Shown one piece after another: positions 16,837 to 62,942 of a DNA stretch of 64,000 nt. The translations under genes and the position numbers were made by a program. The DNA is from a bacterium (GTDB lineage Bacteria; Patescibacteriota; Patescibacteriia; JBDRHN01): assembly GCA_043816765.1 (NCBI GenBank), contig JBDRHN010000023.1:17353-81352 (forward strand), given 5' to 3'. The notes below the pieces were generated by a model. It searched no databases. It was not told the origin of the DNA and worked only from the letters and a program-made list of their open reading frames with translations. Position 1 is the stretch's first letter. Each line of letters begins with the position of its first letter.

Positions 16837-16849
16837 TTCAATCATCGCG

Positions 16850-21511: not shown

Positions 21512-21525
21512 AAAGTTAGTGTTTT

Positions 21526-21584: not shown

Positions 21585-21586
21585 AA

Positions 21587-32162: not shown

Positions 32163-32410
32163 CTGTCATTCCAGAAAATTTTTTCCCACGGCATTTAACA
32201 ATAGTATTTTGCTCTGCTTAGAATGATATTAACAAAAACTTGGTTAAACTCACTGAAAAAATTTATCTGGAATCCAGGAGGCATTGCAATAACTCCTGGA
32301 TTCCAAATAAATTTTTTAATCTTATTGTTCTGGCTATTATTAAATAAAAAATATTATTTTATTTTAATTTGTTTTAATCAGCGCCGTGGAAAAAATTTTT
32401 TGGAATGACA
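32163..32410. mobile_element. MITE-like element (~250 bp) with 27-bp terminal inverted repeats and central palindrome
   Basis: TIR GTCATTCCAGAAAATTTTTTCCCACGGC / GCCGTGGAAAAAATTTTTTGGAATGAC; central CTGGAATCCAGGAG..CTCCTGGATTCCA; related partial copy 54760-54920. Confidence 0.6.
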
Positions 32411-39511: not shown

Positions 39512-39629
39512 ACTTTTCTAAAGATACAAAGATACAAGATACAATAACCAAAAAATAATCAAACGTTCAGAATTTTTTTTACATCTTATATTCTTGTGTT
39601 TTTTATTTTAAAATTATTATTACTGACAT

Positions 39630-39690
39630 CAAACGAGGCAATGCCTCATCTCTACAATCTTGGCGTATCGCAATACGCCTCTACAATAAC
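39630..39690. repeat. family A variant palindrome plus GGCGTATCGCAATACGCC hairpin, upstream of efp
   Basis: CAAACGAGGCAATGCCTCATCTCTACA. Confidence 0.7.
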
Positions 39691-39750
39691 GACTTTCGAC
39701 TTTATAGACTTTACAGACTTTCGACTTATTGGACTTTATGGACTTTCAAC

Positions 39751-39990
39751 TTACTTCGTTGTTATCGGCAAAAGCGCCATGACGCGAGCGCGTTTTATGG
39801 CAGTTTTCAGTTTTCTTTGATGTTTAGCGCATACATTGCTCCTTCTCGGGGGAACAATTTTAGCGTAAGAAGAGATAAATCTTCGCAAAATTGTTGTGTC
39901 TTTGTAATCAATTTCATCAATTTGATTAACGCAAAAATAACAATATCTTTTTTTATCCAACGTATTATTTGTTTTATTGTTTTTATTCAT
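39751..39990 (-). CDS. rpsR: 30S ribosomal protein S18
   Basis: CYFCVNQIDEIDYKDTTILRRFIS... S18 signature. Confidence 0.93.
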   Translation of the reverse strand: MNKNNKTNNTLDKKRYCYFCVNQIDEIDYKDTTILRRFISSYAKIVPPRRSNVCAKHQRKLKTAIKRARVMALLPITTK

Positions 39991-42926: not shown

Positions 42927-43385
42927 TCAGGTGGTAATATAAATTAAACAAATAATAATAACCAATTGCAACAATAAGCCCTGCTTGACTGTCATTTTTG
43001 AGGGTATATAATTATGAATATAGCCATGAAAACTGCTAAAAGGCTTTAAAAATTTGGGTTTAAAAATTTGATAATATATATTTAAAACATCTGGTAAAAT
43101 ACTGCCGAGAACAGCCCAAAAAATATGAGCTGATTTTGGAATTATTGTATATGTAAAAATATAAAGAAGATAAAAAATAGTAATGAAAGCGTCAAGAATG
43201 TTTAGACTCAAAATCAAATCTCTATTAATGCGGCGGCTAAACCAATGCATTAAATTTCCGTCTCCATGGGGGATGAAATCTAAAACAAAATGAGAAACGA
43301 CCGCTAAAAGAAAAATTCCAGTAGCTGATGTTGTTATGCTCTTGGCGATAATAACGCCGATGGCTGTGTGAACGGAGATTAACAT
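42927..43385 (-). CDS. membrane protein, YdjM/DUF457-like metal-dependent hydrolase (tentative)
   Basis: 4-5 TM helices, HFVLDFIPHGD motif. Confidence 0.45.
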   Translation of the reverse strand: MLISVHTAIGVIIAKSITTSATGIFLLAVVSHFVLDFIPHGDGNLMHWFSRRINRDLILSLNILDAFITIFYLLYIFTYTIIPKSAHIFWAVLGSILPDVLNIYYQIFKPKFLKPFSSFHGYIHNYIPSKMTVKQGLLLQLVIIICLIYITT

Positions 43386-43471
43386 AATTTAGTAATTAGT
43401 AACTAGTAATCAGTAACTAGTAAATTCCTATCCCTTATTACTGATTACTAGTTACTAATTACTAAAACATG

Positions 43472-43545
43472 TAGCAGGAGTGGGGCTTGAACCCACGACC
43501 TTGGCGTTATGAGTGCCACGCTCTAACCAGCTGAGCTATCCTGCC
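43472..43545 (-). tRNA. tRNA-Met (anticodon CAU; Ile-lysidine not excluded)
   Basis: manual cloverleaf: acceptor GGCAGGA/TCCTGCT, D-arm GCTC/GAGC, anticodon loop CTCATAA, T-arm GTGGG-TTCAAGC-CCCAC. Confidence 0.75.
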
Positions 43546-46061: not shown

Positions 46062-46064
46062 TTT

Positions 46065-46093
46065 GTAGAGACGAGGCACTGCCTCGTCTCTAC
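46065..46093. repeat. family A palindrome between 7TM gene and ATP-grasp gene
   Basis: GTAGAGACGAGGCACTGCCTCGTCTCTACA. Confidence 0.85.
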
Positions 46094-46109
46094 ATTATTT
46101 TATTAATTT

Positions 46110-49462: not shown

Positions 49463-50647
49463 ATGCAACAAAAAGGAAAATTCGGACAATACGGCGGGGT
49501 GTTCTCGCCGGAAACATTGATGCCCGCTTTGGAAGAGCTTGAAGCGGCTTATTTTAATATTGTTAAAAAAGATAAAAAGTTTAATGCTGAATTAAATTAT
49601 TTATTGCAACAATACGCGGGCAGACCGACGCCGCTTTATTTTGCGGAGAATTTGTCAAAAAAATTGGGACGTAAAATTTATCTCAAACGAGAAGACTTGT
49701 TGCATGGCGGAGCGCATAAGACTAACAATGGTTTGGGGCAAGGTTTGCTTGCCAAATATATGGGAAAGAAAAGGATTATAGCGGAAACGGGGGCGGGGCA
49801 GCATGGGTTTGCCGTAGCGATGATTGGCGCGTTTTTGGGGATACAGACGGAAGTATATATGGGCGTGGAAGATATAGAAAGGCAAAGAATGAATGTTCTG
49901 CGAATGAGGATGTGCGGGGCGAAAATTAATCCGGTTGAAATTCGTCCGGGGGTTGGTTCCCTCAAAGACGCGACTAACGAGGCGATGCGCGACTGGATAA
50001 CAAATGTTCGCACTACTTATTATATAATCGGTTCAGCGGTCGGGCCTCATCCGTATCCAACTATGGTGGCGCAATTTCAGAGAGTTATCAGCAAAGAGAT
50101 AAAAAAGCAGAGCATAAAACAGATCGGTAAATTGCCTGATACTGTGATTGCTTGCGTTGGCGGAGGCAGTAACGCAATCGGCGCTTTTTATGAATTTATT
50201 AATGATAAAAAAGTAAAGTTAATAGGCGTTGAGCCTGCCGGTTTGGGTGTTAATACGACTAAAACCGGAGCGTCAATCGGCAAAGGACGAGATGGAATAT
50301 TGCACGGTTCGCTGTCTAAAGTTCTTCAAGATAAAGACGGGCAAATTAAAGAGGCGTATAGCGTTTCCGCGGGGCTTGATTATCCGGGGGTTGGTCCGCA
50401 ACATGCTCATCTCGCAAAAACAGGGCGCGCGAAATACGAGGCTGTTACCGACAAAGAGGCGTTGGACGCGTTTGAATTGTTGTCAAAGTGCGAAGGAATC
50501 ATTCCCGCGCTTGAATCGGCTCATGCTGTTGCTTATGCTGTGAAATATGCTAAAATATGTCGGAAGGATGAGGTTGTGGTGGTTAATTTGTCGGGGCGGG
50601 GAGATAAAGATATGGAACATGTGAGCTCTCTAATAGGACACAGATAA
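49463..50647 (+). CDS. trpB: tryptophan synthase beta chain
   Basis: full-length TrpB (PLP Lys region [17 protein letters not shown]). Confidence 0.96.
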
Positions 50648-50740
50648 ACACAGACTAAAGCGCAGATAAACACAGATAAAATTATAAAAAATCAGTGTTC
50701 ATCTGCGCCCGAATGGTCAGTGTTTATTTGTGTGCTATTA
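50638..50740 (+). repeat. ~100-bp CAGATAAACACAG-family repeat, copy 1 (overlaps trpB stop)
   Basis: near-identical to 51138-51240; internal imperfect palindrome GCGCAGATAAACAC...GTGTTCATCTGCGC. Confidence 0.85.
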
Positions 50741-50747
50741 TATAAAT

Positions 50748-51155
50748 ATGCAAAATTATCAACACTCAGAATTGACCAAAAAAATTATTTCCTGTTTTTA
50801 TCAAGTCTACAATACTCTCGGTTATGGGTTTTTAGAAAAGGTCTATGAAAATTCTTTAATAAAAGAGTTGAATAAAAATGGATTAAAACCAGTTCAACAA
50901 ATGCCGATTAAGGTTTATTATGAAGGTGAATTGGTTGGTGATTATTTTGCAGATATTGTTGTTGAAAATTTGGTGATATTAGAACTAAAAGCGCAGGAAC
51001 TTCTATGCCCTGAGAACGAAGCTCAGCTATTGAACTATTTAAAAGCAACGAAGTATGAGATTGGTTTATTGTTAAATTTTGGAACAAAGCCAGAGATAAG
51101 GCGAAAAATATATAGCAATAATTTAAAGAATTCAACACAGATAAACACAGACTAA
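50748..51155 (+). CDS. GxxExxY protein (predicted PD-(D/E)xK nuclease fold)
   Basis: LGYGFLEKVYENSL motif plus DIVVEN..LELK; flanked by direct repeats; start at ATG 50748. Confidence 0.75.
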   Translation: MQNYQHSELTKKIISCFYQVYNTLGYGFLEKVYENSLIKELNKNGLKPVQQMPIKVYYEGELVGDYFADIVVENLVILELKAQELLCPENEAQLLNYLKATKYEIGLLLNFGTKPEIRRKIYSNNLKNSTQINTD

Positions 51156-51240
51156 AGCGCAGATAAACACAGATAAAATTATAAAAAATCAGTGTTCATC
51201 TGCGCCCGAAGGGTCAGTGTTTATTTGTGTGCTATTTAAA
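51138..51240 (+). repeat. ~100-bp repeat, copy 2 (direct repeat of copy 1)
   Basis: approximately one mismatch over ~100 bp relative to copy 1. Confidence 0.85.
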
Positions 51241-51243
51241 GAT

Positions 51244-52041
51244 ATGTCATTGATAGATAAAAAATTCAAACCAAACCAAGGAACGCTTGCCATTGGTACT
51301 GTTCCCGGATATCCCGACATGGAAACGAGTTTTGAAATCGTTAAGGCTATTGTTTCCGGCGGGGCGGATATTTTGGAGATGTCTTCTTCTTTTTCTGATC
51401 CTATTGCTGATGGTCCGACACTGCAACAAGCGCACGCGCAAATTTTAAAACATGGCGTTACAAAAGCGCAAGTGTTTAATTTTTATAAAAAAATAAAAAA
51501 AAATTATCCTGAAATTCCAATATTTGTGATTGAGTATTCTAATATTGTTTATACCAACGGCATTGATAATTATTATAAAAAATTAAAAGAGGGCGGGGTT
51601 GATTTGCTTTTAATTCCGGATGTTCCGCTTGAGGAGCTAAAGCCCTACAGCGCGGCGGCTAAAACATACGGAATCGGCCAGTCTTATATAGCGGCGCCGA
51701 CAACGGATAATGAAAGGCTGAAAAAAATTATTCCAAATGTTAACGGTTTTATATATGTGGCAACGGTAACAGGGATTACCGGCGCGAGAAAAAATGTTGA
51801 GGATGAGACTAAAAAGCTTTTGCGAAGAATTAAAACACAGACAAAAATTCCATTGGTCGCGGGGTTTGGAATCAGTAAGCCGGAACACGTAAAAACAGCT
51901 TTGAAATCTGGCGCAGATGGGGTTGTGATCTGTTCGCAGATTATTAATATTATTAATAAAAATTTGAAAAATAAGAAGAAGATGTTGAGTGAGGTTGAGG
52001 GGTTTGTGAAGGAAATGAAAAAAGCCTGCAGTCATTACTAA
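51244..52041 (+). CDS. trpA: tryptophan synthase alpha chain
   Basis: TrpA TIM barrel; start at ATG 51244, because the ORF-track N-terminus lies in the repeat. Confidence 0.92.
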   Translation: MSLIDKKFKPNQGTLAIGTVPGYPDMETSFEIVKAIVSGGADILEMSSSFSDPIADGPTLQQAHAQILKHGVTKAQVFNFYKKIKKNYPEIPIFVIEYSNIVYTNGIDNYYKKLKEGGVDLLLIPDVPLEELKPYSAAAKTYGIGQSYIAAPTTDNERLKKIIPNVNGFIYVATVTGITGARKNVEDETKKLLRRIKTQTKIPLVAGFGISKPEHVKTALKSGADGVVICSQIINIINKNLKNKKKMLSEVEGFVKEMKKACSHY

Positions 52042-52079
52042 GATGTAAAAACGACGATGCAGGCTCTTTCTTATTTTTT
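52024..52079 (+). terminator. hairpin + T-tract downstream of trpA, convergent with small minus-strand ORF
   Basis: GCCTGCA ...TGCAGGC stem with long loop, then CTTTCTTATTTTTT. Confidence 0.4.
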
Positions 52080-52166
52080 GTCTTGAGATGTTGCAACCTC
52101 AGACAAAAAATAAAAAATCTTTATCGCCACACCTGTGGCGATAAAATATAAAAATATTTTTTCCAT
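52072..52166 (-). CDS. small hydrophobic peptide (31 aa) with consensus SD
   Basis: AAAGGAGGTGAAAGAAATG; MEKIFLYFIATGVAIKIFYFLSEVATSQDKK; putative TTGACA promoter upstream. Confidence 0.5.
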
Positions 52167-52337
52167 TTCTTTCACCTCCTTTCAATGGAAAAATATTTAA
52201 TCACAAATTAAATTATATTATGATTTTTGTCAAGAGAAAATAAAACACCTGTCATTCTGAGCGACTTTTACCGCGAACTTGAAGAAATAAAAAAATTTAA
52301 TAATTGCATAAAATTGAAAAACAATCAGAATTAAGCG

Positions 52338-52495
52338 AAGAATCCCGCGGTTGTTGCAGGAACAACGAGATTCTACTCGTCGGCTCCATAGTCCCGAACG
52401 AAGTGAGGGCTATGGAGCCGATATGCGCGCGATAGCAAAACATGCCGGCTCCATAGCCCCCGCTGGCGCGGGGGACTATGGAGCCAACGCGTATT
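52338..52495. repeat. GC-rich palindrome cluster (GGCTCCATAG..CTATGGAGCC hairpins x2 and others)
   Basis: hairpins at 52383-52420 and 52447-52485; partial copy 62137-62150. Confidence 0.8.
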
Positions 52496-52627
52496 AAATC
52501 TAAAATAAATACCAAGCAAGGTGCTGGACACCCAAGGGGGTGTTTGGTTGGCGGTTGAAAAATTTATAAAATAAATAAAGCCCCCGCAAGCTTGAAGTGA
52601 AAATAAGACATTGCGGGGGGGGGGCGG

Positions 52628-52753
52628 TCAACAGCTCAGCATGCCTACTACGCATGCTATGGCGGTTAAACCGCCCGCCATTTCGGATTGAGTCAACAAA
52701 AAAAATAAAAACCCAATCCCGACTAAAAAATAAAAAAAATAAAATCTTCCCAT
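52628..52753 (-). CDS. small hydrophobic peptide (41 aa) with consensus SD, paralog of 52072..52166
   Basis: AGAAAGGAGGTGAGAAAAATG; MGRFYFFYFLVGIGFLFFLLTQSEMAGGLTAIACVVGMLSC; 3' half overlaps GC palindromes. Confidence 0.45.
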   Translation of the reverse strand: MGRFYFFYFLVGIGFLFFLLTQSEMAGGLTAIACVVGMLSC

Positions 52754-52813
52754 TTTTCTCACCTCCTTTCTGGAAAAGACTTAAAAGATCAATATAATTT
52801 TATACATTAAATT

Positions 52814-54040
52814 ATGCCTTTTGTCAAGAAAAAAAATAAAAAATTTTTCCACGCACTTCTATTGCTCTGCGCTTTTTTAATTCTTCTGCCATCAGCAATA
52901 CTAGCCGAATACAAGACTCCCCTATCCGTATTTGTCCGCGAAGGATGCGGGCATTGCTCCCATGAAGAAGAATTTATAACCGAACTCCAAAACAAACGTT
53001 CTGATTTTGAGGTTTTTTATTATGATATCAATACCGAAACCGGCCGTGAAAAATTTTTAGAAATTACAAAGCTTGAAAATCTGCAACAAGGCACGCCGAT
53101 TGCTTTAGTCGGGAACACAATAGTTCAGGGATTTGGGACAGCTGAAACAACAGGGAAAGAGATTGAAGAATTATTAGATTTAAGTTGCGGAAAACAGACT
53201 TTAAATTTTGAAGAATATTTGTCAAAAGGAGGATCAAAAGGCGGGGTAAAGCCGATTGAAAGCGAGAACCAAGAAGAATGCGACGCCAATTCAAATAAAT
53301 TTTTGGTAGATGTTCCTTTTTACGGAGTCGTAAATTTAAAATCATTTTCACTCCCCATGATTGCCACTATTTTAGGCTTTGTTGATGGGTTCAATCCATG
53401 CGCGATGTGGGTTTTAATAACTTTCTTGCTTGTGCTGATGCAAATTGGCGACAAAAAAAGGATGTGGCAAATCGCGGGACTGTTTATTGCCGCTGAAACA
53501 ATAATGTATTTTTTGATTTTGAATCTATGGTTCACGACATGGAATTTTATCGGACTTGATCGTATTGTTACTCCCATCATAGGGATTGTGGCAATCGGCG
53601 GAGGAATTTTCTTTTTGTGGGAAGCGAAAAAAAATGATGGCACTTGCCATGTTACAAATCCGGAACAGCGGAAAAAAACTCATAATAAAATAAAAGATCT
53701 CGCGGCTCGTCCGATGACTATTGCAACAGCCATCGGCGTTATCGGTCTTGCGCTTTCGGTAAATATTATTGAATTTGCCTGTTCAATAGGAATCCCTCAG
53801 GCTTTTACTAAAATTTTAGAAATCAACCGTTTGTCTTGGGGAGCTAATCAAGGATTAATATTGCTATATACTCTCTTCTATATGATTGATGATATCATTG
53901 TTTTCGGGCTTGCGCTTTGGAGCTTTGAACATCTTCATTTAACTCAAAAATACGCAAGATGGTGCAATATCATCGGCGGGATTTTGATGATAATTTTGGG
54001 ACTTCTCTTAATATTTAATCCGGCGATGTTGAGATTTTGA
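52814..54040 (+). CDS. thioredoxin-like (CGHC) periplasmic domain fused to CcdA/DsbD-type transmembrane thiol-disulfide transporter
   Basis: signal peptide, CGHC redox motif, TM domain with NPC (GFNPCAMW) and second Cys (EFACSIG). Confidence 0.8.
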   Translation: MPFVKKKNKKFFHALLLLCAFLILLPSAILAEYKTPLSVFVREGCGHCSHEEEFITELQNKRSDFEVFYYDINTETGREKFLEITKLENLQQGTPIALVGNTIVQGFGTAETTGKEIEELLDLSCGKQTLNFEEYLSKGGSKGGVKPIESENQEECDANSNKFLVDVPFYGVVNLKSFSLPMIATILGFVDGFNPCAMWVLITFLLVLMQIGDKKRMWQIAGLFIAAETIMYFLILNLWFTTWNFIGLDRIVTPIIGIVAIGGGIFFLWEAKKNDGTCHVTNPEQRKKTHNKIKDLAARPMTIATAIGVIGLALSVNIIEFACSIGIPQAFTKILEINRLSWGANQGLILLYTLFYMIDDIIVFGLALWSFEHLHLTQKYARWCNIIGGILMIILGLLLIFNPAMLRF

Positions 54041-54045
54041 TTTGT

Positions 54046-54150
54046 TGAATAGCACACAGATGAACACTGACCCTGCGGGCGCAGATTAACACTAATTTTT
54101 TATAATTTTAAATCTGTGTTTATCTGCGCTTTAGTCTGTGTTAATCTGTG
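54046..54150 (-). repeat. ~100-bp CAGATAAACACAG-family repeat, copy 3 (inverted orientation)
   Basis: ATCTGTGTTTATCTGCGCTTTAGTCTGTGTTAATCTG is the reverse complement of copy-1 5' part. Confidence 0.8.
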
Positions 54151-54166
54151 TCCTATTTTTTTAATT

Positions 54167-54703
54167 ATGTATTTTGTAAAATTAAAAACCAAAAAAGATA
54201 CTGTTGGTTTTGCTAATCAAATAGCTAATATTTGCAACAATCAAACCCCCCAACCCCCCTTGTCAGGGGGGCTATATGTTGTTGCCCTCATTGGCGAGCT
54301 TGGGGTTGGGAAGACTTTTTTTACGAAAGCTTTGGGAAAGGCGCTTGGGGTTAAAGAAACGATTAAAAGTCCGAGTTTTAATTTGATGAAAGTTTATGAA
54401 ATACCGGGCAGACGAACCGTAGAGACGAGGCAGTGCCTCGTCTCTACACAAATCAAAACGTTAGTTCATGTTGATTGTTATCGTTTGAATAGTGCTGAGG
54501 AGTTAATTGATATTGGGCTTTTGGATTATTTTGGATATAATAATACTCTTATTGTTATTGAGTGGGCTGATAAAATAAAAAAAATCTTGCCGAAAGATGC
54601 AGTTTGGGTAAAATTTAAAATGGGAAAAGATGGGGTGAGAATGGCGGCGGTGAATTTAAAACCAATGTCATTCCAAAAAATTTTTTCCATCAATATTAGT
54701 TAA
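54167..54703 (+). CDS. tsaE: tRNA t6A biosynthesis ATPase TsaE with two in-frame palindromic insertions
   Basis: Walker A GELGVGKT; SPSFNLMKVYE...LVHVDCYRL TsaE signature interrupted by RRTVETRQCLVST (54419-54448); QTPQPPLSGG insertion at 54243-54272; start at ATG 54167. Confidence 0.78.
   Translation: MYFVKLKTKKDTVGFANQIANICNNQTPQPPLSGGLYVVALIGELGVGKTFFTKALGKALGVKETIKSPSFNLMKVYEIPGRRTVETRQCLVSTQIKTLVHVDCYRLNSAEELIDIGLLDYFGYNNTLIVIEWADKIKKILPKDAVWVKFKMGKDGVRMAAVNLKPMSFQKIFSINIS
54419..54448. repeat. family A palindrome inside tsaE (in frame)
   Basis: GTAGAGACGAGGCAGTGCCTCGTCTCTACA. Confidence 0.85.
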
Positions 54704-54759
54704 CGTAAACCAAAATAGAATAATATTACTTTAGTAAAAATCTATATTAATGAGATTAA

Positions 54760-54920
54760 AAAATTTATTTGGAATCCAGGAGGAATTGCACAAACCCCTG
54801 GATTCCAGATAAATTTTTTCAGTGCATTAATTAATTTTTTGTTAATATTAGATTTTAATCAAAGTAAAAATGTTTGCTTAAGGGCGATGGAAAAAATTTT
54901 CTGGAATGACAGGCTTTGGT
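54760..54920. mobile_element. partial MITE-like element (central palindrome + right TIR), related to 32163-32410
   Basis: TTTGGAATCCAGGAGG..CCCTGGATTCCAGA and GCGATGGAAAAAATTTTCTGGAATGACAGG. Confidence 0.5.
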
Positions 54921-54960
54921 TATTTTTAATTGTTCGTGCCATATTAGAATTTAATAACTT

Positions 54961-55878
54961 ATGTATAACAAATCAAAAACAGAAACAATCGGCATTATTC
55001 TGGTTTTAACTGGTGCGGCATTATGGGGAATGTTCCCTGTGTTTGTTAATAGGGGCGCGAAAATTATTCCGCCGCTAATATTTGCGGCTTGTTCTGCAAT
55101 GATAGCGGCGATTGGGTCTTTTGTGTACTTAATAAAACAAGGAAAATTATTTGAACTTAAAAAAAGAGAATCGTATTTTTCATTAGCAATGATAACACTT
55201 TGCATTGTTGTTATACCATATAGTCTGTTTTTCATCGGCGCGAGCAAAACCTCGGGGGTTAACAGCTCAATGCTTCTTTTGGCTGAAATTATATTTACTC
55301 TTATTTTCACCCCTTTCATTGGTGAAAAAAATACAAAATATAAAATTCTTGGGGCTGGCGGAATTTTTGCTGGAGCGTGTTTTATTATGTATAATGGAAC
55401 ATTTACTTTGAACACTGGCGATATATTGATTATTCTAAGTACTATTACATATCCAATAGGAAATTTTTACGGAAAAAAAGTTTTAAACTTAATTTCCCCG
55501 TCAGTTATTTTGTTTGTTCGTTTTTTCTTTGGCGGATTGTTTATTCTAACATTTTCTTTAATGGCTGAAAGAGGAATAAATATTGGACAGATTATTTATA
55601 ATAACTGGCCTTTATTTATTTTTAACGGTCTTGTTTTGCTTGGCATTTCTAAGATTTTATGGTATGAGTCGTTAAAAAGAATTGATATATCAAAAGCTGT
55701 TTCTTTGGGGATGACCTTTCCGCTATTTAGCTTAATAATCTTGATTGTCTATTTTAATGAAAAAATTTCAGTTTATCAAGGAATTGGGGTTGCAATTATG
55801 ATAATCGGAGTATATTATTCTATTCGGCGGTCATCAGTGGATCCAAAACTAACCAAGTATTCTCCTTGCAAAACCTAA
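54961..55878 (+). CDS. EamA/DMT-family transporter
   Basis: 10 TM helices, two EamA-like repeats. Confidence 0.8.
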   Translation: MYNKSKTETIGIILVLTGAALWGMFPVFVNRGAKIIPPLIFAACSAMIAAIGSFVYLIKQGKLFELKKRESYFSLAMITLCIVVIPYSLFFIGASKTSGVNSSMLLLAEIIFTLIFTPFIGEKNTKYKILGAGGIFAGACFIMYNGTFTLNTGDILIILSTITYPIGNFYGKKVLNLISPSVILFVRFFFGGLFILTFSLMAERGINIGQIIYNNWPLFIFNGLVLLGISKILWYESLKRIDISKAVSLGMTFPLFSLIILIVYFNEKISVYQGIGVAIMIIGVYYSIRRSSVDPKLTKYSPCKT

Positions 55879-55939
55879 AAAAAAGTGTTAAATTATTTGC
55901 AACGTAATTAATGTGTGGAAATTGGATTTTCACGCTTAC

Positions 55940-56012
55940 GCACCAATAACTCAGTGGTGAGAGTGCCACCCTTATAAGGTGGAAGTCGATGGTTCAAATC
56001 CATCTTGGTGCA
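55940..56012 (+). tRNA. tRNA-Ile (anticodon UAU)
   Basis: acceptor GCACCAA/TTGGTGC, D-arm ACTC-AGTGGTGA-GAGT, anticodon stem CCACC/GGTGG loop CTTATAA, T-arm GATGG-TTCAAAT-CCATC. Confidence 0.8.
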
Positions 56013-56093
56013 CAATATTGAACTTCTCTTTATGAAAAACGCCGAGGATTTTGGCGTTGGTTTAGATTATCTAACATTACATCCCCACTGGCA

Positions 56094-56330
56094 ATGTCAG
56101 GCAAAGCTCATTTCGGCAGTATGGCTTTAAGATTATTTATAGAAAAATATCAGCCTTATGCAACTCTGCATGGTCATATTCACGAAACGGTTGATATGTC
56201 TGGAGAATTTAAACAAAAAATCGGCGATACTTTATGTTTGGCGTCGGGCAATAATAATGTTGGCGACAATTTGACGGTGTTGGTTTTTGAGATAGATAAA
56301 ATACAGGACGCGAGAAGAATTATTGTTTAA
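56094..56330 (+). pseudogene. C-terminal fragment of a calcineurin-like metallophosphoesterase
   Basis: 78-aa ORF with ATLHGHIHETVD (GHxH) motif only; sits beside tRNA. Confidence 0.45.
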
Positions 56331-56449
56331 AAATTGTTGCTGAAATTTTGTAAGTTTGGTAGTATTGTATTAAATATTCAAAAAAATCAATAAATTAGAC
56401 GCTAACGCGCGCATTGTCTAGAGGAAAAGCAGGTTTGTGGAAACTTATT

Positions 56450-57496
56450 ATGAAAAAAGATAATCAAAAATCTCAAATTATTATTTATAAAACAGAGGAT
56501 GGGCGGACTAAAATTGATGTTCGCTTTGAGGATGAAACTGTTTGGCTTACGCAAAACACGCTGGCGGAACTTTTTCAGACTACAAAACAAAATATAAGCC
56601 AACATATAAAGAATATCTTTGAAGAGGGCGAACTTAAGCCAAATTCAGTTGTAAAGGATTTCTTGACAACTGCCGCTGACGGTAAAAATTATACAACAAA
56701 CTATTATAATTTAGATCTTATTATTTCTGTCGGCTATCGCGTTAAAAGCGGTATTGCCACAGCTTTTCGCCAGTGGGCGACCGAACATTTAAGAGAATAT
56801 ATTATAAAAGGTTTTGTATTGGATGACGAACGTTTGAAAAATCCCGATTTGCCTTTTGATTATTTTGAAAATTTAACGCGCCGTATTGCGGACATTCGCA
56901 CCTCTGAAAAAAGATTTTATAGAAAAATTACTGATATTTACGCTACCAGCGTTGATTATGATCCGACAGATGAGCAAAGCATTTTATTTTTTCAAACGGT
57001 TCAAAATAAAGTTCACTACGCCGTAACAGGAAATACCGCGGCAGAAATAATCGCAAATAGAGCCGACGGCGACAAGCCGAATGCCGGTCTTACATATTTC
57101 CGCGGGACAAAACCGACAAAAGAAGAGGCGCTGATAGCTAAAAATTATTTAAGCGAACAGGAACTTCTTGTTTTAAATAATATTGTTGAGCAGTATCTTG
57201 TATTTGCCGAAGGGCAAGCGATGCAAAGAATTCCAATGTATATGAAAGATTGGATTGATAAGCTGCATAGTTTTTTGCAGATTAATAATAAGGAAATTCT
57301 AAAAGACGCGGGAAAAATTTCGCATGATTTGGCGGTGGAAATAGCTGAAAAAAAACTTGCGGAGTATAAAAAAATTGAATCAAAAAAAATAGATGGTGAT
57401 TTTGATGTTTTTGCGAATAAGGCGATTAAGCTGGTTGGCGGGAATAAAATTTTGTCAATCTATTTTACAAACCATTTGACAAATATTTTTACATAA
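56450..57496 (+). CDS. RhuM-family (virulence-associated) protein
   Basis: IIIYKTEDGRTKIDVRFEDETVWLTQNTLAELFQ typical RhuM N-terminus. Confidence 0.7.
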   Translation: MKKDNQKSQIIIYKTEDGRTKIDVRFEDETVWLTQNTLAELFQTTKQNISQHIKNIFEEGELKPNSVVKDFLTTAADGKNYTTNYYNLDLIISVGYRVKSGIATAFRQWATEHLREYIIKGFVLDDERLKNPDLPFDYFENLTRRIADIRTSEKRFYRKITDIYATSVDYDPTDEQSILFFQTVQNKVHYAVTGNTAAEIIANRADGDKPNAGLTYFRGTKPTKEEALIAKNYLSEQELLVLNNIVEQYLVFAEGQAMQRIPMYMKDWIDKLHSFLQINNKEILKDAGKISHDLAVEIAEKKLAEYKKIESKKIDGDFDVFANKAIKLVGGNKILSIYFTNHLTNIFT

Positions 57497-57498
57497 AT

Positions 57499-57527
57499 TA
57501 TACTACCAATAAGGTAGTATTTTTTAT
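57499..57527 (+). terminator. Rho-independent terminator after RhuM gene
   Basis: ATACTACC-aat-AAGGTAGTAT + T6. Confidence 0.6.
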
Positions 57528-57537
57528 ACATTTATAT

Positions 57538-57592
57538 GGGTAGATGGAAGCCCTCGCTTCCACCGGCGCGAGCGAGGGCTCGCGCCTACCCG
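57538..57592. repeat. GC-rich palindromic element (GGGTAG...CTACCCG family)
   Basis: outer arms shared with 38903-38944 element; inner GCGAGCGAGGGCTCGCGC. Confidence 0.7.
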
Positions 57593-57617
57593 GATAAAAA
57601 TTTCTCTGCAAAAATTT

Positions 57618-58400
57618 ATGCTCTCAAAATTCATCCAACAACAACGAAAAAAGAATAATCTAACCCAAGAATTTTTGGCGACAAAGATTGGGGTGTCCCG
57701 CCCTACATATATGCAGATAGAACAAGGCGGACGGGATTTGACTGTTACAGAAGCGAAGAAGCTCGCGGATATTTTTGGCATCTCATTTGAAGATTTTGTG
57801 CAGGAAAAGGAGGAATCAACTCCTGTTGTTGAAATTCAAAAAAGCAAAATGAAAAAAATAATAAAAAAAGAAGAGATTCGCATTCACGTTCCGCAAGAAA
57901 AAGCGGAAAAATTTGAGCAAACCTTTTTGCATATTTTAGCAAAAATAGGCAGCAAACAAAATATCGGGCAAACTGTGCTTTATAAACTGCTATATTTTAT
58001 TGATTTTGATTATTATGAAAAATACGAAGAGCAATTAATTGGCGCAAAATATATTAAAAACATGTATGGACCAACTCCTCTGATGTTCGCAAAAATTATT
58101 GATAAACTTGAAAGAGAGGGAAAAATAGAAAAGATAAAAAGCAAATTTTACACGCGAGAGCAAACAAAATATCTAATAAATCCATCAAATACTCAAGATG
58201 TTTCTGCTCTCTCATCTCAGGAGCTCGCTCATATTGATTGGGAAATAGATCGGCTTGGCGGTATGACGGCGGTGCAAATTTCAGCATTGTCTCATCTTGA
58301 TACTCCTTGGGTTGTGGCCAAGGAAAAAGAACTGCTAGAGTATGAACATGTATTTTATAGGCCGGATGAAACTTCGGTAAGACAATATGAGGAACTTTGA
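57618..58400 (+). CDS. HTH (XRE-family) + DUF4065/Panacea-domain protein, putative antitoxin
   Basis: N-terminal LTQEFLATKIGVSRPTYMQIEQG HTH; LYKLLYFIDFDYY...MYGPTP Panacea-like core; 14-nt overlap with next gene. Confidence 0.6.
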   Translation: MLSKFIQQQRKKNNLTQEFLATKIGVSRPTYMQIEQGGRDLTVTEAKKLADIFGISFEDFVQEKEESTPVVEIQKSKMKKIIKKEEIRIHVPQEKAEKFEQTFLHILAKIGSKQNIGQTVLYKLLYFIDFDYYEKYEEQLIGAKYIKNMYGPTPLMFAKIIDKLEREGKIEKIKSKFYTREQTKYLINPSNTQDVSALSSQELAHIDWEIDRLGGMTAVQISALSHLDTPWVVAKEKELLEYEHVFYRPDETSVRQYEEL

Positions 58401-58728
58401 TTCTCTACAAGAATTTGAAAAGGAGTTTAAGCGACTTTTCAAAAAATACAAAACACTGCGTGATGATTTGGAAAAGTTTAAAAATGTGCTCGAAAGTTGC
58501 CCTGCTGGCGTTGGAAAAAATTTTGTTATTATTCATTCAACTGAGACTATAAAAATAGTAAAAGCGCGCATGTCATGCCGCGCGCTTTGCGATAGATCTC
58601 TCCGTGTGATATATGGATATTTTCAACGAGAAGAAAAAATTATTTTCATTGAGATATATTTCAAGGGTGAGAAAGAAAACGAAAACCGCAAAAGAATTAA
58701 AGAGTATTTAAAAAACTCGCTAAACTGA
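58387..58728 (+). CDS. RelE/ParE-superfamily toxin (putative)
   Basis: RSLRVIYGYFQREEKIIFIEIYFKG C-terminal beta-sheet pattern of RelE/ParE/YafQ-like toxins. Confidence 0.55.
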   Translation: MRNFDSLQEFEKEFKRLFKKYKTLRDDLEKFKNVLESCPAGVGKNFVIIHSTETIKIVKARMSCRALCDRSLRVIYGYFQREEKIIFIEIYFKGEKENENRKRIKEYLKNSLN

Positions 58729-59010
58729 ATTTAACCATTTCACATATTCCCTACTCCCCTCGGCTTCAATTTTAATAACGCACGGAGTTTCATAACTAAT
58801 TAGTTATTGTGTAAAAACTCGTTTTTAACGTAAAATTAAGTTTGGGGCTTTGCTAATGTTAGCATCATTACGCAGAACTAAGCAGAATTTGACGCAGAAA
58901 AACGCAGAAATTACACAGGAACTAATTAGCAAAAATGGACAAATTGTCATTCTGATTGACAATTTGTCCATTTTTCTATAAACTTAAAATATAATAAATA
59001 ATAAAAAAAT

Positions 59011-60174
59011 ATGTATATAGATAGAACACTGGAGAAAAAAATCAAACAATTAGCTAAAACTTATCCCGTTGTTGCGTTAACCGGACCCAGACAATCTGGA
59101 AAAACAACAATGGTTAAAAAAATATTTTCTGGAAAAAAATATATATCATTGGAAAATTTAGACAACAGAGCCTTTGCCAAAAATGATCCCAGGGGATTTT
59201 TAAAAACTTATAAAAATGGAGCAGTCATAGACGAAGCGCAAAATGTTCCTGAATTATTTTCTTACATTCAGGAAATTGTAGACACAAACAAAAAACCAGG
59301 GGAATTTATTTTGACGGGTTCGCAAAATTTTTTATTGATGGAAAAAATTAATCAAAGTCTGGCGGGCAGAATAGCTATAACCACCCTTCTGCCTCTTAGT
59401 ATGGAAGAAATCAGTAAAAAGACAAAAAAATTACAGCTAAATCAATTAATGCTTAATGGACAATATCCGATTATTTATGAAAAAAAAATAGACGCAAATG
59501 AATGGTATCAAAATTATATTAAAACATATATTGAAAGGGATGTCAGACTAATGAAAAATATAACTGACTTAAATTTATTCCAAAAATTCGTTAAACTATG
59601 CGCGGGGCGAATTGGACAAATTTTGAACCTAACTTCAATCGCAAATGATTGCGGGGTAAGCCATAATGTTATCAGGGGATGGATATCTATCTTGGAAGCA
59701 AGTTATATAATTTTTCTCTTGCACCCCTATTATGAAAATTTTAACAAACGTCTTATCAAAATGCCAAAAATATATTTTTATGACACAGGGCTTGCGGCAT
59801 CATTGCTTGGCATAGAAGATAAAGACAAGTTTGATATTAATCCGTTTAAAGGGGGTCTGTTTGAATCATTTGTTATTTCAGAAATTATGAAAAAAGAATA
59901 TAACAAAGGCAGAACTCCAAACATATATTTTTGGAGGGATAAAACCGGGCATGAAATAGATTGTTTATATGAAAATAAAAGAAAAAAATACGCGATAGAA
60001 ATAAAATCAGCGAAAACGATAAACAGTGATTTTTTTGACAACTTAAATTATCTGCAAAAAATTTCAAAAAATAATTTTACGAATTCTGTTTTAATTTACG
60101 GTGGAAACGAAAAACAGAACAGAAATGACGCAACTGTCTTGGGCTGGAACAACTTTGTTTCCAAATTGAATTAG
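59011..60174 (+). CDS. AAA+ ATPase, COG1373/DUF4143 family (third paralog)
   Basis: Walker A GPRQSGKT, Walker B VIDEAQ. Confidence 0.8.
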   Translation: MYIDRTLEKKIKQLAKTYPVVALTGPRQSGKTTMVKKIFSGKKYISLENLDNRAFAKNDPRGFLKTYKNGAVIDEAQNVPELFSYIQEIVDTNKKPGEFILTGSQNFLLMEKINQSLAGRIAITTLLPLSMEEISKKTKKLQLNQLMLNGQYPIIYEKKIDANEWYQNYIKTYIERDVRLMKNITDLNLFQKFVKLCAGRIGQILNLTSIANDCGVSHNVIRGWISILEASYIIFLLHPYYENFNKRLIKMPKIYFYDTGLAASLLGIEDKDKFDINPFKGGLFESFVISEIMKKEYNKGRTPNIYFWRDKTGHEIDCLYENKRKKYAIEIKSAKTINSDFFDNLNYLQKISKNNFTNSVLIYGGNEKQNRNDATVLGWNNFVSKLN

Positions 60175-62072
60175 ACTTGTATAATCACCGGCAACACCAT
60201 CGGGCGACGTTTTGTTTTTGAGAACAGGAATTGCCCGATGTCGTTTCTTATTTTATCTTTTGTGTATGCTTCAAAAGTCGGGGATTTTTTATCGCTGTCT
60301 TGAAGAATTTTTTTCGCTTTTTTTCTGGTCTGTTCTATCAGCTCTTTGCTCTCTTTCATATAAACAAACCCGCGGGAAATGATGTCGGGGTTGCCGACTA
60401 ATTCCCCTGTTTTATGCCGCAATGTGGCGATAATAACAACCATTCCGTCTTCCGACATCATTCGTCGGTCTCGCAGAACGATATTAGAAACATCGCCGAC
60501 GCCAAGTCCGTCAACCATCACATAATCGGTCGGCACTTTTTTATTTGTCAATTTTCCGATCGTTTCATCGCCCTGTTTATAAAATTCCATTATCTGCCCA
60601 TTGTCCGCAACCATAATATTGGAACGCGGGATGCCAATGCTGTGGGCGTGATCGGCGTGAATGCGCAACATATAGTGATACGCCTCTATCGGAATAAAAT
60701 ATTTAGGCTTTATCAAATTTATCATCAATTTTGCATCTTCTGCCTTTGCGTGTCCTCCCGCGTGAACGTCCATCATTTGATAATTTATAACTTTCGCCCC
60801 CTTGCGATAAAAAGTATCGTTTAACGCCTGAATTGTTCTTTCATTGCCGGGAATTACTGAAGATGAAAAAACGACTAGGTCGCTGGGGGCTACTGCTAAA
60901 AATCTATGGTCGCCGGATGCGAAACGGGTTAAAAACGCGTTCTGCTGTCCTTGCGCTCCTGTTCCCACGACAACAACTTTGTTGTCCGGCAAGCTTTTAA
61001 CTTCTTCATAACTATTGATTAGAGTATTTGGTCTGAATTTTAAATAGCCAAGTTTGTGAGCGATTTCTACATTGTCTTTCATGCTGCGGCCTTCCAGTAA
61101 AATCCTGCGGCCATGTTTTTCCGCAATATCAACAATCAGTTGAATTCTGGAAATCATGCTCGCAAATGTGCCGATTATAATTCTCCCTTCGGCCATTTCA
61201 AATATTTTATCAATATCAATACCAATGTCTTTTTCTGAAAGCTGGTGTCCCGGGTGTTCGGCGTTTGTGCTGTCAGACATTAAAGCTAATACGCCGCTGG
61301 ATCCATACTGCGCTATTTTTGAAAGATCAGCCGGAGTGTCATTGACAGGAGTATGATCAAATTTATAATCGCCGGTGTGAATAATTTGCCCCACTGGGGT
61401 TTTAATCGCCAGCCCAAAACTGTCGGGGATGCTGTGATTAATTTTGAAAAATTCCACCTGAAAACTATTTCCCATGCGCGCGCGATAGCCGTCTAAAACT
61501 ATTTGGATATTTAATTTCGGCGCGTCGCGGTATTCTTCCTGACGTTTATTCATGAGTCCTGCGGATAATCTGCCGGCATACATAAGCGGGTTGCCGAGTT
61601 TTGGCATCAGGTGCGGCACGGCGCCGATGTGATCCATATGTCCATGGGTAATAATCACACCTTTGATATTTTTTTCTTTTCCTTTTAGGTAACTAATATT
61701 AGGAATTACATAATCAATTCCAGGCATATCTTCATCCGGAAACTGCATCCCCATGTCAATGATAATTATATCGTCATTGAATTCCATGACTGTCATATTG
61801 CGTCCGACTTCTTCCAGTCCGCCTAAAACTATTACTTTTAATCTGTTTCTCGCGTCATTTTCAACATGACTGCTAAATTGTTCTATGTCTTGTCTTGATT
61901 CAACTTTTTGATCAACATGCGGTCGGCGATTTATAATATTAAATTTCCTCCGATCACCAGTTCCCCTTTTCACGTCAACCGCGGCGGATGCTTGATCTGC
62001 TGTTTTTCTTTCTGTTTTTGTTTTGGACAAATTTGGCAAAACTTTTCTTGCCCATGTTGTTTTTGTTTCCAT
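60171..62072 (-). CDS. rnj: ribonuclease J
   Basis: metallo-beta-lactamase HGHMDHIG, beta-CASP region, ~630 aa. Confidence 0.9.
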   Translation of the reverse strand: METKTTWARKVLPNLSKTKTERKTADQASAAVDVKRGTGDRRKFNIINRRPHVDQKVESRQDIEQFSSHVENDARNRLKVIVLGGLEEVGRNMTVMEFNDDIIIIDMGMQFPDEDMPGIDYVIPNISYLKGKEKNIKGVIITHGHMDHIGAVPHLMPKLGNPLMYAGRLSAGLMNKRQEEYRDAPKLNIQIVLDGYRARMGNSFQVEFFKINHSIPDSFGLAIKTPVGQIIHTGDYKFDHTPVNDTPADLSKIAQYGSSGVLALMSDSTNAEHPGHQLSEKDIGIDIDKIFEMAEGRIIIGTFASMISRIQLIVDIAEKHGRRILLEGRSMKDNVEIAHKLGYLKFRPNTLINSYEEVKSLPDNKVVVVGTGAQGQQNAFLTRFASGDHRFLAVAPSDLVVFSSSVIPGNERTIQALNDTFYRKGAKVINYQMMDVHAGGHAKAEDAKLMINLIKPKYFIPIEAYHYMLRIHADHAHSIGIPRSNIMVADNGQIMEFYKQGDETIGKLTNKKVPTDYVMVDGLGVGDVSNIVLRDRRMMSEDGMVVIIATLRHKTGELVGNPDIISRGFVYMKESKELIEQTRKKAKKILQDSDKKSPTFEAYTKDKIRNDIGQFLFSKTKRRPMVLPVIIQV

Positions 62073-62287
62073 AATTTTGTAATGCTAAAAATAGACAATT
62101 TGCGGAAAAAAATATTTCGCGCGTTCCCCCTCCCGCAGATGGGGCTATGGAGATGGTTTTGGTTGTCGTGTAATTAACAAGAGTTCTTTTTTTCCCGTCC
62201 GCAAGTTTGCGGAATGGATTAATTGTTATTTAAGTTGTTAAAATTTATTTTGAGGTAATTGGGATTAAATATATTCAGTGCCAAATG

Positions 62288-62410
62288 CAGACTATCTAAA
62301 AATCATATCTGTGTTAATCTTCGCTTTAGTCTGTGTTCATCTGTGTCCTATTTTCAATCAACCCAAGCTAAAAAATAATTAGACGCAGATTAACACTGAC
62401 CCTTCGGGCG
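62288..62410 (-). repeat. CAGATAAACACAG-family repeat, copy 4 (rearranged, inverted)
   Basis: ATCTGTGTTAATCTTCGCTTTAGTCTGTGTTCATCTGTG ... AGACGCAGATTAACACTGACCCTTCGGGCG. Confidence 0.7.
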
Positions 62411-62818
62411 CTGAAAAACACAGATTTTAGATAAAAACTTTTTTAATTCAGGAACAATATCATCTATGTTCTCGTATTCAATCACAATATCGGTAATACC
62501 TTTTGCGGTATCTTTCAATAAAACTCCGCGCTTCACAAGAACTATTATTTTTTTATTCATTGCATAAGCAATTCCCGCTTCTATGGCGCGCCCTGTTGAC
62601 TTATGCGTGAGATCAATCAATAGCGCGTCGCATGATTTAATCTCCTGTTTTGTTATTGCCATCATTTCCAACGGATTATCAAAAAAATTTTGATAATTTT
62701 CTATATCACGAATAAAACAAAAATCATTAAATCCTGCTTGCTTTGCAATATTGCAAAGATGTTCTATCTCGGATTGGTTTTCACCGTGCTTAAAAGTGGC
62801 TGTAATAAATAACTTCAT
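62390..62818 (-). CDS. nucleoside 2-deoxyribosyltransferase-like protein
   Basis: HKSTGRAIEAGIAYAMNKKIIVL resembles the NDT-family active-site region; C-terminus overlaps the repeat. Confidence 0.5.
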   Translation of the reverse strand: MKLFITATFKHGENQSEIEHLCNIAKQAGFNDFCFIRDIENYQNFFDNPLEMMAITKQEIKSCDALLIDLTHKSTGRAIEAGIAYAMNKKIIVLVKRGVLLKDTAKGITDIVIEYENIDDIVPELKKFLSKICVFQRPKGQC

Positions 62819-62860
62819 CGTGTTTCCAAATGTTAATAAAATAACCTAACGACGCATTTT

Positions 62861-62888
62861 GTAGAGACGCATTGCAATGCGTCTCTAC
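62861..62888. repeat. family A variant palindrome (GTAGAGACGCATTGCAATGCGTCTCTAC)
   Basis: perfect 14-bp arms with altered core. Confidence 0.75.
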
Positions 62889-62942
62889 ATTGGACGCTCG
62901 GTTTTCACGAACCGTTCAATGTTAAAATTCCTTTGCAACAAA

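Follow-up and report, generated by a model that had tools for sequence, protein, structure and literature searches.

Intervening sequences (IVSs) of 23S rRNA occur in an ORF-less form of ~100 nt (Salmonella type) and in a form of ~0.4–0.8 kb that bears an open reading frame (ORF; Leptospira/Coxiella S23p/IVP type). In the Coxiella 23S IVS, tandem GACAGAT heptamers form part of the stem, upstream of the ORF, and RNase III cuts this stem (PMC4990558). Judged by their design, these IVSs are the closest known match to the elements described here, in which the gene belongs to the GxxExxY family; a 2012 survey gave the function of this family as unknown and reported multiple transfers between bacterial divisions (PMC3424549). 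The DNA analyzed is a 64-kb stretch of a Patescibacteriota genome (contig JBDRHN010000023.1, positions 17,353 to 81,352; "the window" in the following), which carries four copies of a hairpin-forming repeat (c1 to c4), two of them on either side of a GxxExxY gene between trpB and trpA. On balance, we favor the interpretation that the repeats are the cis-acting inverted-repeat frame of a tiny selfish cassette with a GxxExxY nuclease as its sole gene, accompanied by gene-less, non-autonomous copies. The best label is an IVS-like or MITE-like cassette (MITE, miniature transposable element with inverted repeats) that is probably acted on by the encoded nuclease.

The original prediction had placed four repeat copies in this region; all four were recovered, and their limits were refined to those given in Table 1. 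Both sequence blocks quoted in that prediction were present exactly in c1 and c2, and the copy described as rearranged (c4) was found to consist of two arms in swapped order. Each copy contains four 13-nt boxes with the consensus CWGAnnAACACWG, complete in c1, c2, and c3 and permuted in c4. With up to two mismatches allowed, the 13-mer CAGATAAACACAG was matched 19 times in the window versus 1.1 matches expected, a count reached in none of 100 shuffles, and chance is therefore excluded as an explanation of the repeat family; 16 of the 19 matches fall in c1 to c4. Copies c1 and c2, the start positions of which are 497 bp apart, differ at one of 102 aligned bases (99% identity), and c3 and c4, located in unrelated spacers, are 82 to 92% identical to them. 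Arm identity within the window ranges from 82 to 96%, and all four copies lie inside 12 kb. Copy counts refer to the 64-kb window of the source genome, in which a search with a profile built from 13 hairpins gave no further full copies. The same kind of profile search (nhmmer) assigned an E value of 0.56 to a degenerate lone arm, possibly a weak remnant of the box-repeat family.

A full copy is composed of an outer end (AATAGGACAC or AATTCAACAC), an A arm of two boxes with ACTAAAGCG between them, an AT-rich loop of about 15 nt, a B arm of two inverted boxes with CCCGAATGG between them, and the outer end GTGTGCTATT. The boxes occur in the forms CAGATAAACACAG and CAGTGTTYATYTG, the arms start with AATAGSACAC or AATTCGACAC, ACACAG hexamers repeat at intervals of 10 to 13 nt, and the B-arm spacer CCCGAAKGG is itself a 3-bp mini-palindrome. 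The outer end of c2 is AATTCAACAC, the end typical of gene-bearing frames elsewhere. With a size of ~108 nt, no coding sequence, and terminal inverted repeats (TIRs), the element has the dimensions and ends of a MITE. In c4, the arms abut by their outer ends over a 25-nt spacer, with the A-arm outer end CCTATT facing the B arm, and the two loop-side flanks are mutually complementary; it resembles either a hairpin that has been opened within the loop or the point at which two tandem hairpins, now without their distal halves, were joined. As judged from the trpB end in the close strain L034 (comparison sequences carry L numbers throughout), the first 7 nt of c1 (AATAGGA) are native trpB codons. 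The same end is also present at c3 and c4, which hints at target similarity or microhomology.

Table 1. Positions of the box repeats, the enclosed gene, adjoining gene ends, and further features of the window
Feature	Position	Strand	Remarks
c1	50632-50739	+	Full hairpin; imperfect palindrome
c2	51129-51236	+	Full hairpin; imperfect palindrome
c3	54048-54157	reverse	Full hairpin, solo (gene-less)
c4, A arm	62307-62352	reverse	Spacer CGCTTTAGT on + strand
c4, A-arm loop-side flank	62293-62301		TATCTAAAA
c4, B arm	62378-62425	reverse	Spacer CCCTTCGGG on + strand
c4, B-arm loop-side flank	62425-62433		TTTTAGATA
Degenerate lone arm	58868-58920 (about)	+	4-5 phased GCAGAA / ACACAGGAA boxes
GxxExxY / PDDEXK_3 (TIGR04256) gene	50748-51155	+	135 aa; between outer ends of c1 and c2, in trpB/trpA spacer
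trpB stop codon	50645-50647		Inside c1
GxxExxY ORF stop codon	51153-51155		Inside c2
trpA ATG	51244		7 nt after end of c2
Membrane/glutaredoxin-like ORF stop	54040		7 nt before c3
tsaE ATG	54167		9 nt after c3
Nucleoside-deoxyribosyltransferase-like (NDT-like) ORF	62390-62818	minus	Last 12 codons (62390-62425) are c4 B arm
Promoter-like match	50714-50741		TGGTCA, 16 nt, TATTAT, with upstream TG
MITE-like family	32163-32410, 54749-54912		CTGTCATTC(C/T)... ends; 76-nt internal palindrome
GTAG-headed palindromes	14849-14880, 16806-16837, 21525-21585, 32709-32740, 39626-39657, 46064-46095, 54418-54449, ~62860-62890		Perfect palindrome GTAGAGACGAGGCASTGCCTCGTCTCTAC
Short tandem-repeat arrays	956-1012, 4303-4365, 7843-7891, 13740-13775, 22726-22753, 39704-39756, 43382-43472		TTACTGA/TTACTAG and GACTTTT types
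Variable island	55940-60174		Beside tRNA gene
DUF3800-IX RNA motif	31979-32047		Rfam match, 52.9 bits vs gathering score 36.8

The gene product enclosed by c1 and c2 corresponds to protein MFH1564462.1, from a metagenome-assembled genome (MAG) at NCBI, and was matched by Pfam PF13366 (1.6e-40, 138.5 bits versus a cut-off of 22) and by NCBIfam TIGR04256 (4e-39, 133.6 bits versus a cut-off of 35). Its homologues typically have 126 aa; the last ~9 residues of the window ORF are read-through into the A arm of c2, and residues 129 to 135 are disordered in the AlphaFold (AF2) model. This model (pLDDT 90.4) has a PD-(D/E)XK fold, and the best solved structures retrieved with Foldseek were Cas4 SSO0001 and lambda-exonuclease-like nucleases, followed by weaker matches to tRNA-splicing endonuclease and Hjc, which has to be taken as a generic PD-(D/E)XK match that does not tell resolvase-, Cas4-, and RNA-splicing-like activities apart. 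Across 43 homologues, no variation was found at E30 (the glutamate of the GxxExxY motif), D69, or E79, and at least 90% of them have K81. Based on the predicted fold and these four conserved residues, the protein is probably an active nuclease. Searched by sequence, the Protein Data Bank held no match to it, and a scan of viral contigs with the protein gave no match either. The family comprises 15,280 clusters at 50% identity; the nearest homologues of the window protein, at 75 to 79% identity, are from Patescibacteria, and genes of the family are spread over phyla at up to 78% identity. Two-domain GxxExxY proteins were considered as read-through products of tandem units, an idea that was rejected, as they are ordinary domain fusions.

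Homologous loci were selected by protein similarity alone, and box arrays were found on both sides of the gene in seven of seven independent close-homologue loci (the window plus six). The proteins encoded there share 65 to 90% pairwise identity, and the hosts are Patescibacteria, Cloacimonetes, and a Bacteroidota-like contig. Three frame architectures were distinguished. In L008 (neighbors RuvA and FemAB) and L011 (ProCA and PGK; 47-nt TIR, 91% complementary), a single arm precedes and another follows the gene, which thereby takes the "loop" position between the outer ends AATTCGACAC... and ...GTGTGCTATT. Complete hairpins on both sides, as in the window, are present in L014 (ProCA and PGK), in L020, the Bacteroidota-like contig (dUTPase and DNA polymerase III alpha), and in the Cloacimonetes MAG L017 (AAA/kinase-like ATPase ORF and IMPDH; hairpin, gene, two tandem hairpins, and a solo hairpin 7 kb off). 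The mixed form is represented by L012 (ProCA and PGK; arm, gene, arm, loop, arm). Because close-homologue genes carry the same boxes on both sides, the ~108-nt window repeats are best described, from sequence comparison, as the GxxExxY frame minus its gene.

This recurrence also bears on the simplest account of the window, in which c1 and c2 would stem from tandem duplication in the region of the gene and the remaining copies would be chance or decayed relics with no function. The near-identity of c1 and c2, their short distance, and the clustering of all copies would fit such a local artefact, but the hairpin-gene-hairpin arrangement recurs independently in L014, L017, and L020, and c3 and c4 retain 82 to 92% identity to c1 and c2 although their spacers are unrelated. 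Moreover, between the window and other genomes the arms are 75 to 82% identical and the gene DNA 69 to 72%, so across phyla the non-coding arms are conserved no less than the coding sequence. A local duplication is thus largely refuted by the cross-phylum recurrence, and we give it hardly any credence. That copies within one genome are the most alike points to intragenomic spread or concerted evolution.

The association was followed to more distant homologues in seven genes of 34 to 60% identity taken from annotated plasmid records, using flanks of 120 nt. The box core was present on both sides in four of the seven, on one side in two, and on neither side in one. It forms inverted repeats across the gene in Bacteroides finegoldii (TTCACCACAGAGGACGCAGAGGACACGGAG / CTCTGTGACCTCTGTGTCCTCTGTGGTGAA; gene between radA and a gene for an FAD protein), in Bernardetia (CACAGAGA units), and in Treponema (11-nt inverted repeat ACACGGATTCG / CGAATCCGTGT), and direct B-like repeats occur on both sides in Fusobacteria. 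A complete hairpin of CGCGGAT units is found in Gemmatirosa on the downstream side, and in Sphingomonas (fabD, gene, fabG) one core match on the upstream side; Persicobacter showed no box core in its 120-nt flanks. Taken over 14 genes, the core C[AG]C[ATG]GA was counted 98 times in the 120-nt flanks versus 7.0 expected from the rest of the loci, a motif that was defined after some of the same loci had been viewed. Both neighbors were called or annotated in ten loci; in every one of these, the gene points in the same direction as both, and it is packed tightly into housekeeping operons such as fabD|gene|fabG, radA|gene, ProCA|gene|pgk, and trpB|gene|trpA. The frame travels with the gene across phyla, with at least five represented besides that of the window, occurs both with and without it, and would explain GxxExxY genes as single insertions inside housekeeping operons.

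An exact A-arm-core pattern was scanned in 185,579 species genomes and in JGI metagenomes. The pattern was too specific; a single true relative was among its matches, a solo hairpin that is shared by L001, L005, and L007 and sits between convergent genes in L001. Short A-arm-core fragments were also seen in L002, without a flanking element, and in L006, possibly a remnant. In L003 (Parabacteroides sp. PF5-6), an isolated A-arm-like half element GCACGCAGATAACACAGACTAAAGCGCAGATTTACACAGAT at 2148-2214 is located shortly downstream of a putative MATE-type efflux gene, and no GxxExxY gene was present in the 8 kb covered.

Orthologous sites in relatives of the window genome were compared next to each other. 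In L024 (TrpA 81%, same gene order), the c3 site is an empty 13-nt spacer, the RNase J–purA region has neither the NDT-like gene nor c4, and the trpB–trpA spacer is occupied by a 23S_rRNA_IVP gene (L024:9562-9954) inside its own inverted-repeat frame. L034 and L035, with TrpA in the same 90%-identity cluster, contain between trpB and trpA a different TIR element of 345 nt with CTGTCATTCTGAGCGAC ends, and their trpB ends with ...TTAATAGGATAA. The more distant relative L026 has a trpB–trpA spacer of 89 nt with neither of these elements and no box hairpin. The c3 and RNase J–purA sites were covered in L024, and L034, L035, and L026 covered the trpB–trpA site. Since none of these orthologous sites holds box hairpins, the hairpins and the cassette are lineage-specific insertions that are not ancestral at the examined sites, and the trpB|trpA spacer is a hot spot for small inverted-repeat elements.

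The 345-nt element of L034, which replaces the GxxExxY cassette there, is related to a MITE-like family with two copies in the window (89% identical); outside the window, the family is represented at L024:18125-18375, L034:425-775, and L025:60-110. Genes of the 23S_rRNA_IVP/bAvd family at L024:9562-9954, L008:6679-7032, and L017:12238-12636 are each framed by inverted short-repeat arrays of their own, made in L017 of AGCGTAG heptamers on both sides. These IVP cassettes follow the design of the GxxExxY frame with a different repeat unit. In the window, no 23S_rRNA_IVP gene was detected by tblastn.

The pattern of presence and absence is relevant to the possibility that the repeats are host-domesticated extragenic palindromes, comparable with repetitive extragenic palindromic (REP) sequences, bacterial interspersed mosaic elements, or Correia elements, which would serve as mRNA processing or stabilizing sites, weak terminators, or host-protein sites, and at which GxxExxY genes would merely land. 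The solo copies do sit precisely in short spacers (c3, the L001 hairpin between convergent genes, and the L017 solo), long near-perfect stems would be substrates of RNase III, as shown for IVS stems, a similar heptamer accompanies another ORF family in Coxiella, and the window is rich in other palindromic repeat families. However, hairpins that are missing in close relatives are not conserved host signals. The boxes, moreover, stay with GxxExxY genes in completely different hosts, namely, Patescibacteria, Cloacimonetes, Bacteroidota, Spirochaetota, and Fusobacteriota and, on one side, Gemmatimonadota, whereas the 23S_rRNA_IVP genes of the same genomes use other repeat units. In agreement, none of the hairpins was flagged as an intrinsic terminator in a simple terminator scan. 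We therefore regard a host function of this kind as unlikely.

The pairing into a long stem-loop that had been proposed for the repeats was borne out by folding. Copies c1 to c3 fold at -44 to -50 kcal/mol, with the A and B arms pairing into a stem of ~45 bp, and z-scores of c1 and c3 versus shuffles were -7.9 to -11.5 for both strands. Permutation does not abolish folding in c4 (-41 to -47 kcal/mol), because its two loop-side flanks complement each other. In no case was folding better for the sense strand than for the antisense strand; both are equal in the window, and the antisense strand is better by 1 to 6 kcal/mol in nine of ten non-window hairpins. Covariation was measured on a curated alignment of ten arm pairs, in which 88.9% of the cells are paired and 20 of 37 pairs never vary. 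The score of 0.113, compared with 0.074 in shuffles, was reached by one of 500 shuffles and is modest; together with the invariant pairs, it indicates conservation of the boxes rather than of pairing. No match at the gathering score of Rfam 15 was obtained for the hairpins of the window and of 11 related loci, and relaxed E values yielded chance, sub-threshold matches to microRNA hairpins.

These data gave no support to the original prediction that each copy may encode a structured RNA, either a small RNA or a cis-regulatory element. Such an RNA would be in line with the very stable predicted hairpins, the location of copies at gene starts and ends, and some double-sided changes that preserve pairing. 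The copies occur, however, in both orientations relative to the neighboring genes and thus to transcription, neither Rfam nor the folding energies of the sense strand speak for an RNA gene, and the arms tolerate both a 380-nt gene between them and the exchange of their order seen in c4. Inverted repetition by itself accounts for the fold. The invariance of more than half of the pairs is what is expected of protein-recognized DNA, and conserved box sequences from which pairing follows by inverted repetition would fit protein-recognized DNA ends better than a structural RNA gene. A structured RNA as the primary nature of the repeats is accordingly very improbable, even though a transcript that crosses a hairpin would carry the ~45-bp stem. 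A reading as a type III toxin-antitoxin system, with RNA repeats ahead of a nuclease toxin, was dropped because the repeats are inverted rather than tandem, lie on both sides of the gene, and also occur alone.

The metagenome contig L004 (ENA ERZ27247128, contig k141_62882, 566 bp) encodes a protein identical to that of the window, and its first 70 nt are repeated at the contig end. The order is gene end, hairpin, gene start, so that the unit measures 496 bp with one hairpin per gene; the hairpin loop is 1 nt shorter than in the window. This arrangement suggests that the cassette was either excised as a circle or present in a tandem array.

A circular form is also the starting point of the view that the repeats are recombination sites similar to integron attC, at which a circular gene-plus-hairpin cassette would integrate into a resident hairpin by means of a recombinase encoded elsewhere, with the folded single strand as substrate. 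The hairpins are imperfect palindromes with a fitting size, and their four boxes resemble binding sites in an R''-L''...L'-R'-like arrangement; hairpin-gene-hairpin is the exact product of recombination between a circle and a site, and the L004 junction fits an excised circle. The gene appears to be promoter-less and is always co-oriented with its neighbors, and the slightly better folding of the antisense strand in most non-window copies would likewise suit a single-stranded substrate. On the other hand, no tyrosine or serine recombinase was present among the ORFs scanned between 46 and 64 kb of the window, and in the GxxExxY loci retrieved, none of the called genes that matched Pfam encodes one. 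Cassettes occur singly and not in arrays, the core motifs RYYYAAC / GTTRRRY are absent as read from the sequence, and the arm-gene-arm frames of L008, L011, Bacteroides, and Bernardetia cannot result from integration of a circle at a hairpin. Recombination of the attC kind is therefore considered a doubtful explanation, somewhat more so than the host palindromes. The related suggestion of the original prediction, that the repeats act as attachment sites for a cassette, holds insofar as they are linked to the GxxExxY cassette, but it was too narrow, as the repeats are the inverted-repeat frame of the cassette itself; a role as att sites is putative.

For the favored selfish cassette, a course of events can be proposed. 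The arms consist of two phased boxes each, with the core CRCRGAK (CAGATAAACACAG in the window). One unit, c1-gene-c2, would have inserted between trpB and trpA, and two gene-less copies, c3 and the permuted c4, into intergenic spacers close by. The step proposed with most confidence is that the frames are the cis-acting ends of the cassette and that solo hairpins are non-autonomous copies or footprints. Second in confidence, the GxxExxY nuclease would recognize or cut the phased boxes or an extruded hairpin or cruciform. Third, the direct hairpins flanking the gene would permit a 496-bp circle of gene plus hairpin to be lost, with a solo hairpin left behind, or to be gained at a solo hairpin, or tandem units to form; spread as DNA may proceed by recombination between hairpins or by nuclease-initiated copying. 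Fourth, RNase III may process co-transcribed stems as it does those of rRNA IVSs, and harm to the host operon would thereby be limited.

Several observations weigh against this proposal. A target-site duplication was not visible at c3 (tttgttg / tttttaatt) or at c1, and the empty site of L024 is too diverged to align. A transposition or recombination event was not seen directly; L004, a single short contig from a metagenome, might have arisen in assembly. The four copies are confined to 12 kb, as counted in 64 kb of the source genome. At one orthologous site (L011, L012, and L014), three architectures were found, which no single simple mechanism fits. The two weakest distant loci are nearly motif-less (none in Persicobacter, one upstream match in Sphingomonas), and the after-the-fact definition of the enriched core has to be counted here as well. 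Finally, the box core has been reported beside an S23p ORF, which is not a nuclease, in Coxiella, and the boxes may thus not be specific to the GxxExxY protein.

Overlaps of the copies with gene ends, part of the original prediction, were verified at trpB, the GxxExxY ORF, the tsaE spacer, and the NDT-like ORF. The stop codons of trpB and of the GxxExxY ORF lie within the hairpins, c3 fills the spacer upstream of tsaE except for 7 and 9 nt, and, in addition to the 12 terminal codons of the NDT-like ORF provided by the c4 B arm, the two preceding codons come from its loop-side flank. The hairpins thus rewrite the C-termini of trpB, NDT-like, and GxxExxY products and displace the spacer before tsaE and trpA; they may also break metagenome assemblies. 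A promoter-like sequence made up of the c1 B arm and outer end terminates 7 nt before the GxxExxY ATG and would yield a leaderless transcript; it is a single weak consensus match. In loci of the candidate phyla radiation (CPR), the element end GTGTGC(T/C)AT(T/C) usually lies 5 to 9 nt before the next ATG, with L008 (about 66 nt) as the exception.

Other features of the window were recorded alongside. A second repeat family, present in eight copies and one variant, is a GTAG-headed perfect palindrome that is REP-like and intergenic; with its beginning GTAGAGACGAGGCA... it is true to the GTAG head of REP sequences, unlike the box arms, and one copy lies just upstream of the NDT-like gene. Several of the short tandem-repeat arrays are located between ribosomal-protein genes (L24 and S10), and some are hairpin-like, among them the array at 43382-43472, which adjoins a tRNA gene. 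The variable island contains genes of the RhuM family, for an HTH protein with a SocA/Panacea antitoxin-like protein, and for an AAA_14/DUF4143 ATPase; the syntenic region of L024 has uvrA in its place.

An association of flanking repeats with GxxExxY, PDDEXK_3, PF13366, or TIGR04256 was not described in the searchable full-text literature, and a 2024 survey of CPR rRNA insertions did not mention the GxxExxY family. There is a moderate chance that the frames point to a general, undescribed property of a very large protein family. For this family without an assigned function, the box arrays represent a conserved DNA or RNA partner and a candidate substrate of the nuclease. One design, a small ORF with inverted short-repeat arrays, links GxxExxY and 23S_rRNA_IVP/S23p, both of which are tied to rRNA IVSs. 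A broader generalization can be put forward tentatively and is in our estimate rather less probable than its opposite: GxxExxY proteins would be the nucleases of an unrecognized class of minimal (~0.5 kb) mobile elements with inverted CRCRGAK arrays as ends and box hairpins as non-autonomous forms, and these, together with the 23S_rRNA_IVP cassettes, would be free-living relatives of rRNA IVSs. If true, this would bear on the rRNA IVSs, the origin and mobility of which have been unexplained since the early 1990s.

Among known mobile systems, the elements of the IS200/IS605 family of insertion sequences (IS) are, like the cassette, very small, carry similar, directly oriented hairpins at their two ends, have a circular junction form (a possible one in the cassette), and show a strong orientation bias. 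They differ in that the cassette has no TnpA (Y1 HUH) or TnpB and in its hairpins, which are ~45-bp stems of repeated boxes; single-strand transposition ("peel and paste"), the mode of IS200/IS605, would be hypothetical for the cassette. Integron attC sites resemble the repeats as imperfect palindromes of 60 to 140 nt with paired inner and outer boxes, and integron cassettes offer a parallel in the promoter-less co-oriented gene and the possible circular gene-plus-site form (L004). In contrast to integrons, no IntI/attI and no arrays were found in the ORFs scanned and the loci retrieved, attC core motifs are lacking, and the elements are scattered singly in housekeeping operons.

REPINs and their RAYT transposases are similar in that short extragenic palindromic doublets form hairpins, that a presumed mobilizing gene is flanked by the repeat, and that gene-less copies are scattered in intergenic DNA and are more alike within than between genomes. 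Here, however, the flanked gene is of the PF13366 / TIGR04256 type rather than an HUH/Y1 transposase, and the arms lack the GTAG/CGTC head of REPs, which are palindromes of 20 to 40 nt. GxxExxY genes are probably commonly present in several copies per genome; RAYTs, in contrast, typically occur as single copies with vertical inheritance. MITEs and their parent IS (Correia/CREE, ERIC, RU-1/2/3) are likewise ~100-nt non-coding elements with TIRs in intergenic positions, sometimes fused to gene ends, with a longer gene-bearing version that has the same ends and with a hairpin when transcribed. Different from MITEs are the gene, which belongs to a PD-(D/E)XK nuclease family (putative activity) and to no recognized transposase family, the target-site duplication, which was not detected at c3 or c1, and the inverted repeats, which are made of phased sub-repeats in modular arms (arm-gene-arm, hairpin-gene-hairpin, and the permuted c4).

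The 23S rRNA IVSs correspond to the cassette in being small elements with complementary borders that form a long stable stem of short repeats, with or without an ORF of ~120–130 aa, and in their sporadic, horizontally spread distribution. The Coxiella GACAGAT unit nearly equals CACAGAT, the box core of the present elements, and in L024 the very trpB|trpA site is occupied by a 23S_rRNA_IVP gene inside a frame of its own. The copies described here are, in contrast, located in spacers of protein operons and not in helix 25/45, with no rRNA in the window; the ORF codes for a PD-(D/E)XK nuclease (PF13366) instead of the four-helix-bundle S23p (PF05635), and the gene is often placed outside two complete hairpins and not in the loop. 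What is new here is thus an IVS-/MITE-like design, as read from these sequences, that is combined with an unusual enzyme and an unusual location.

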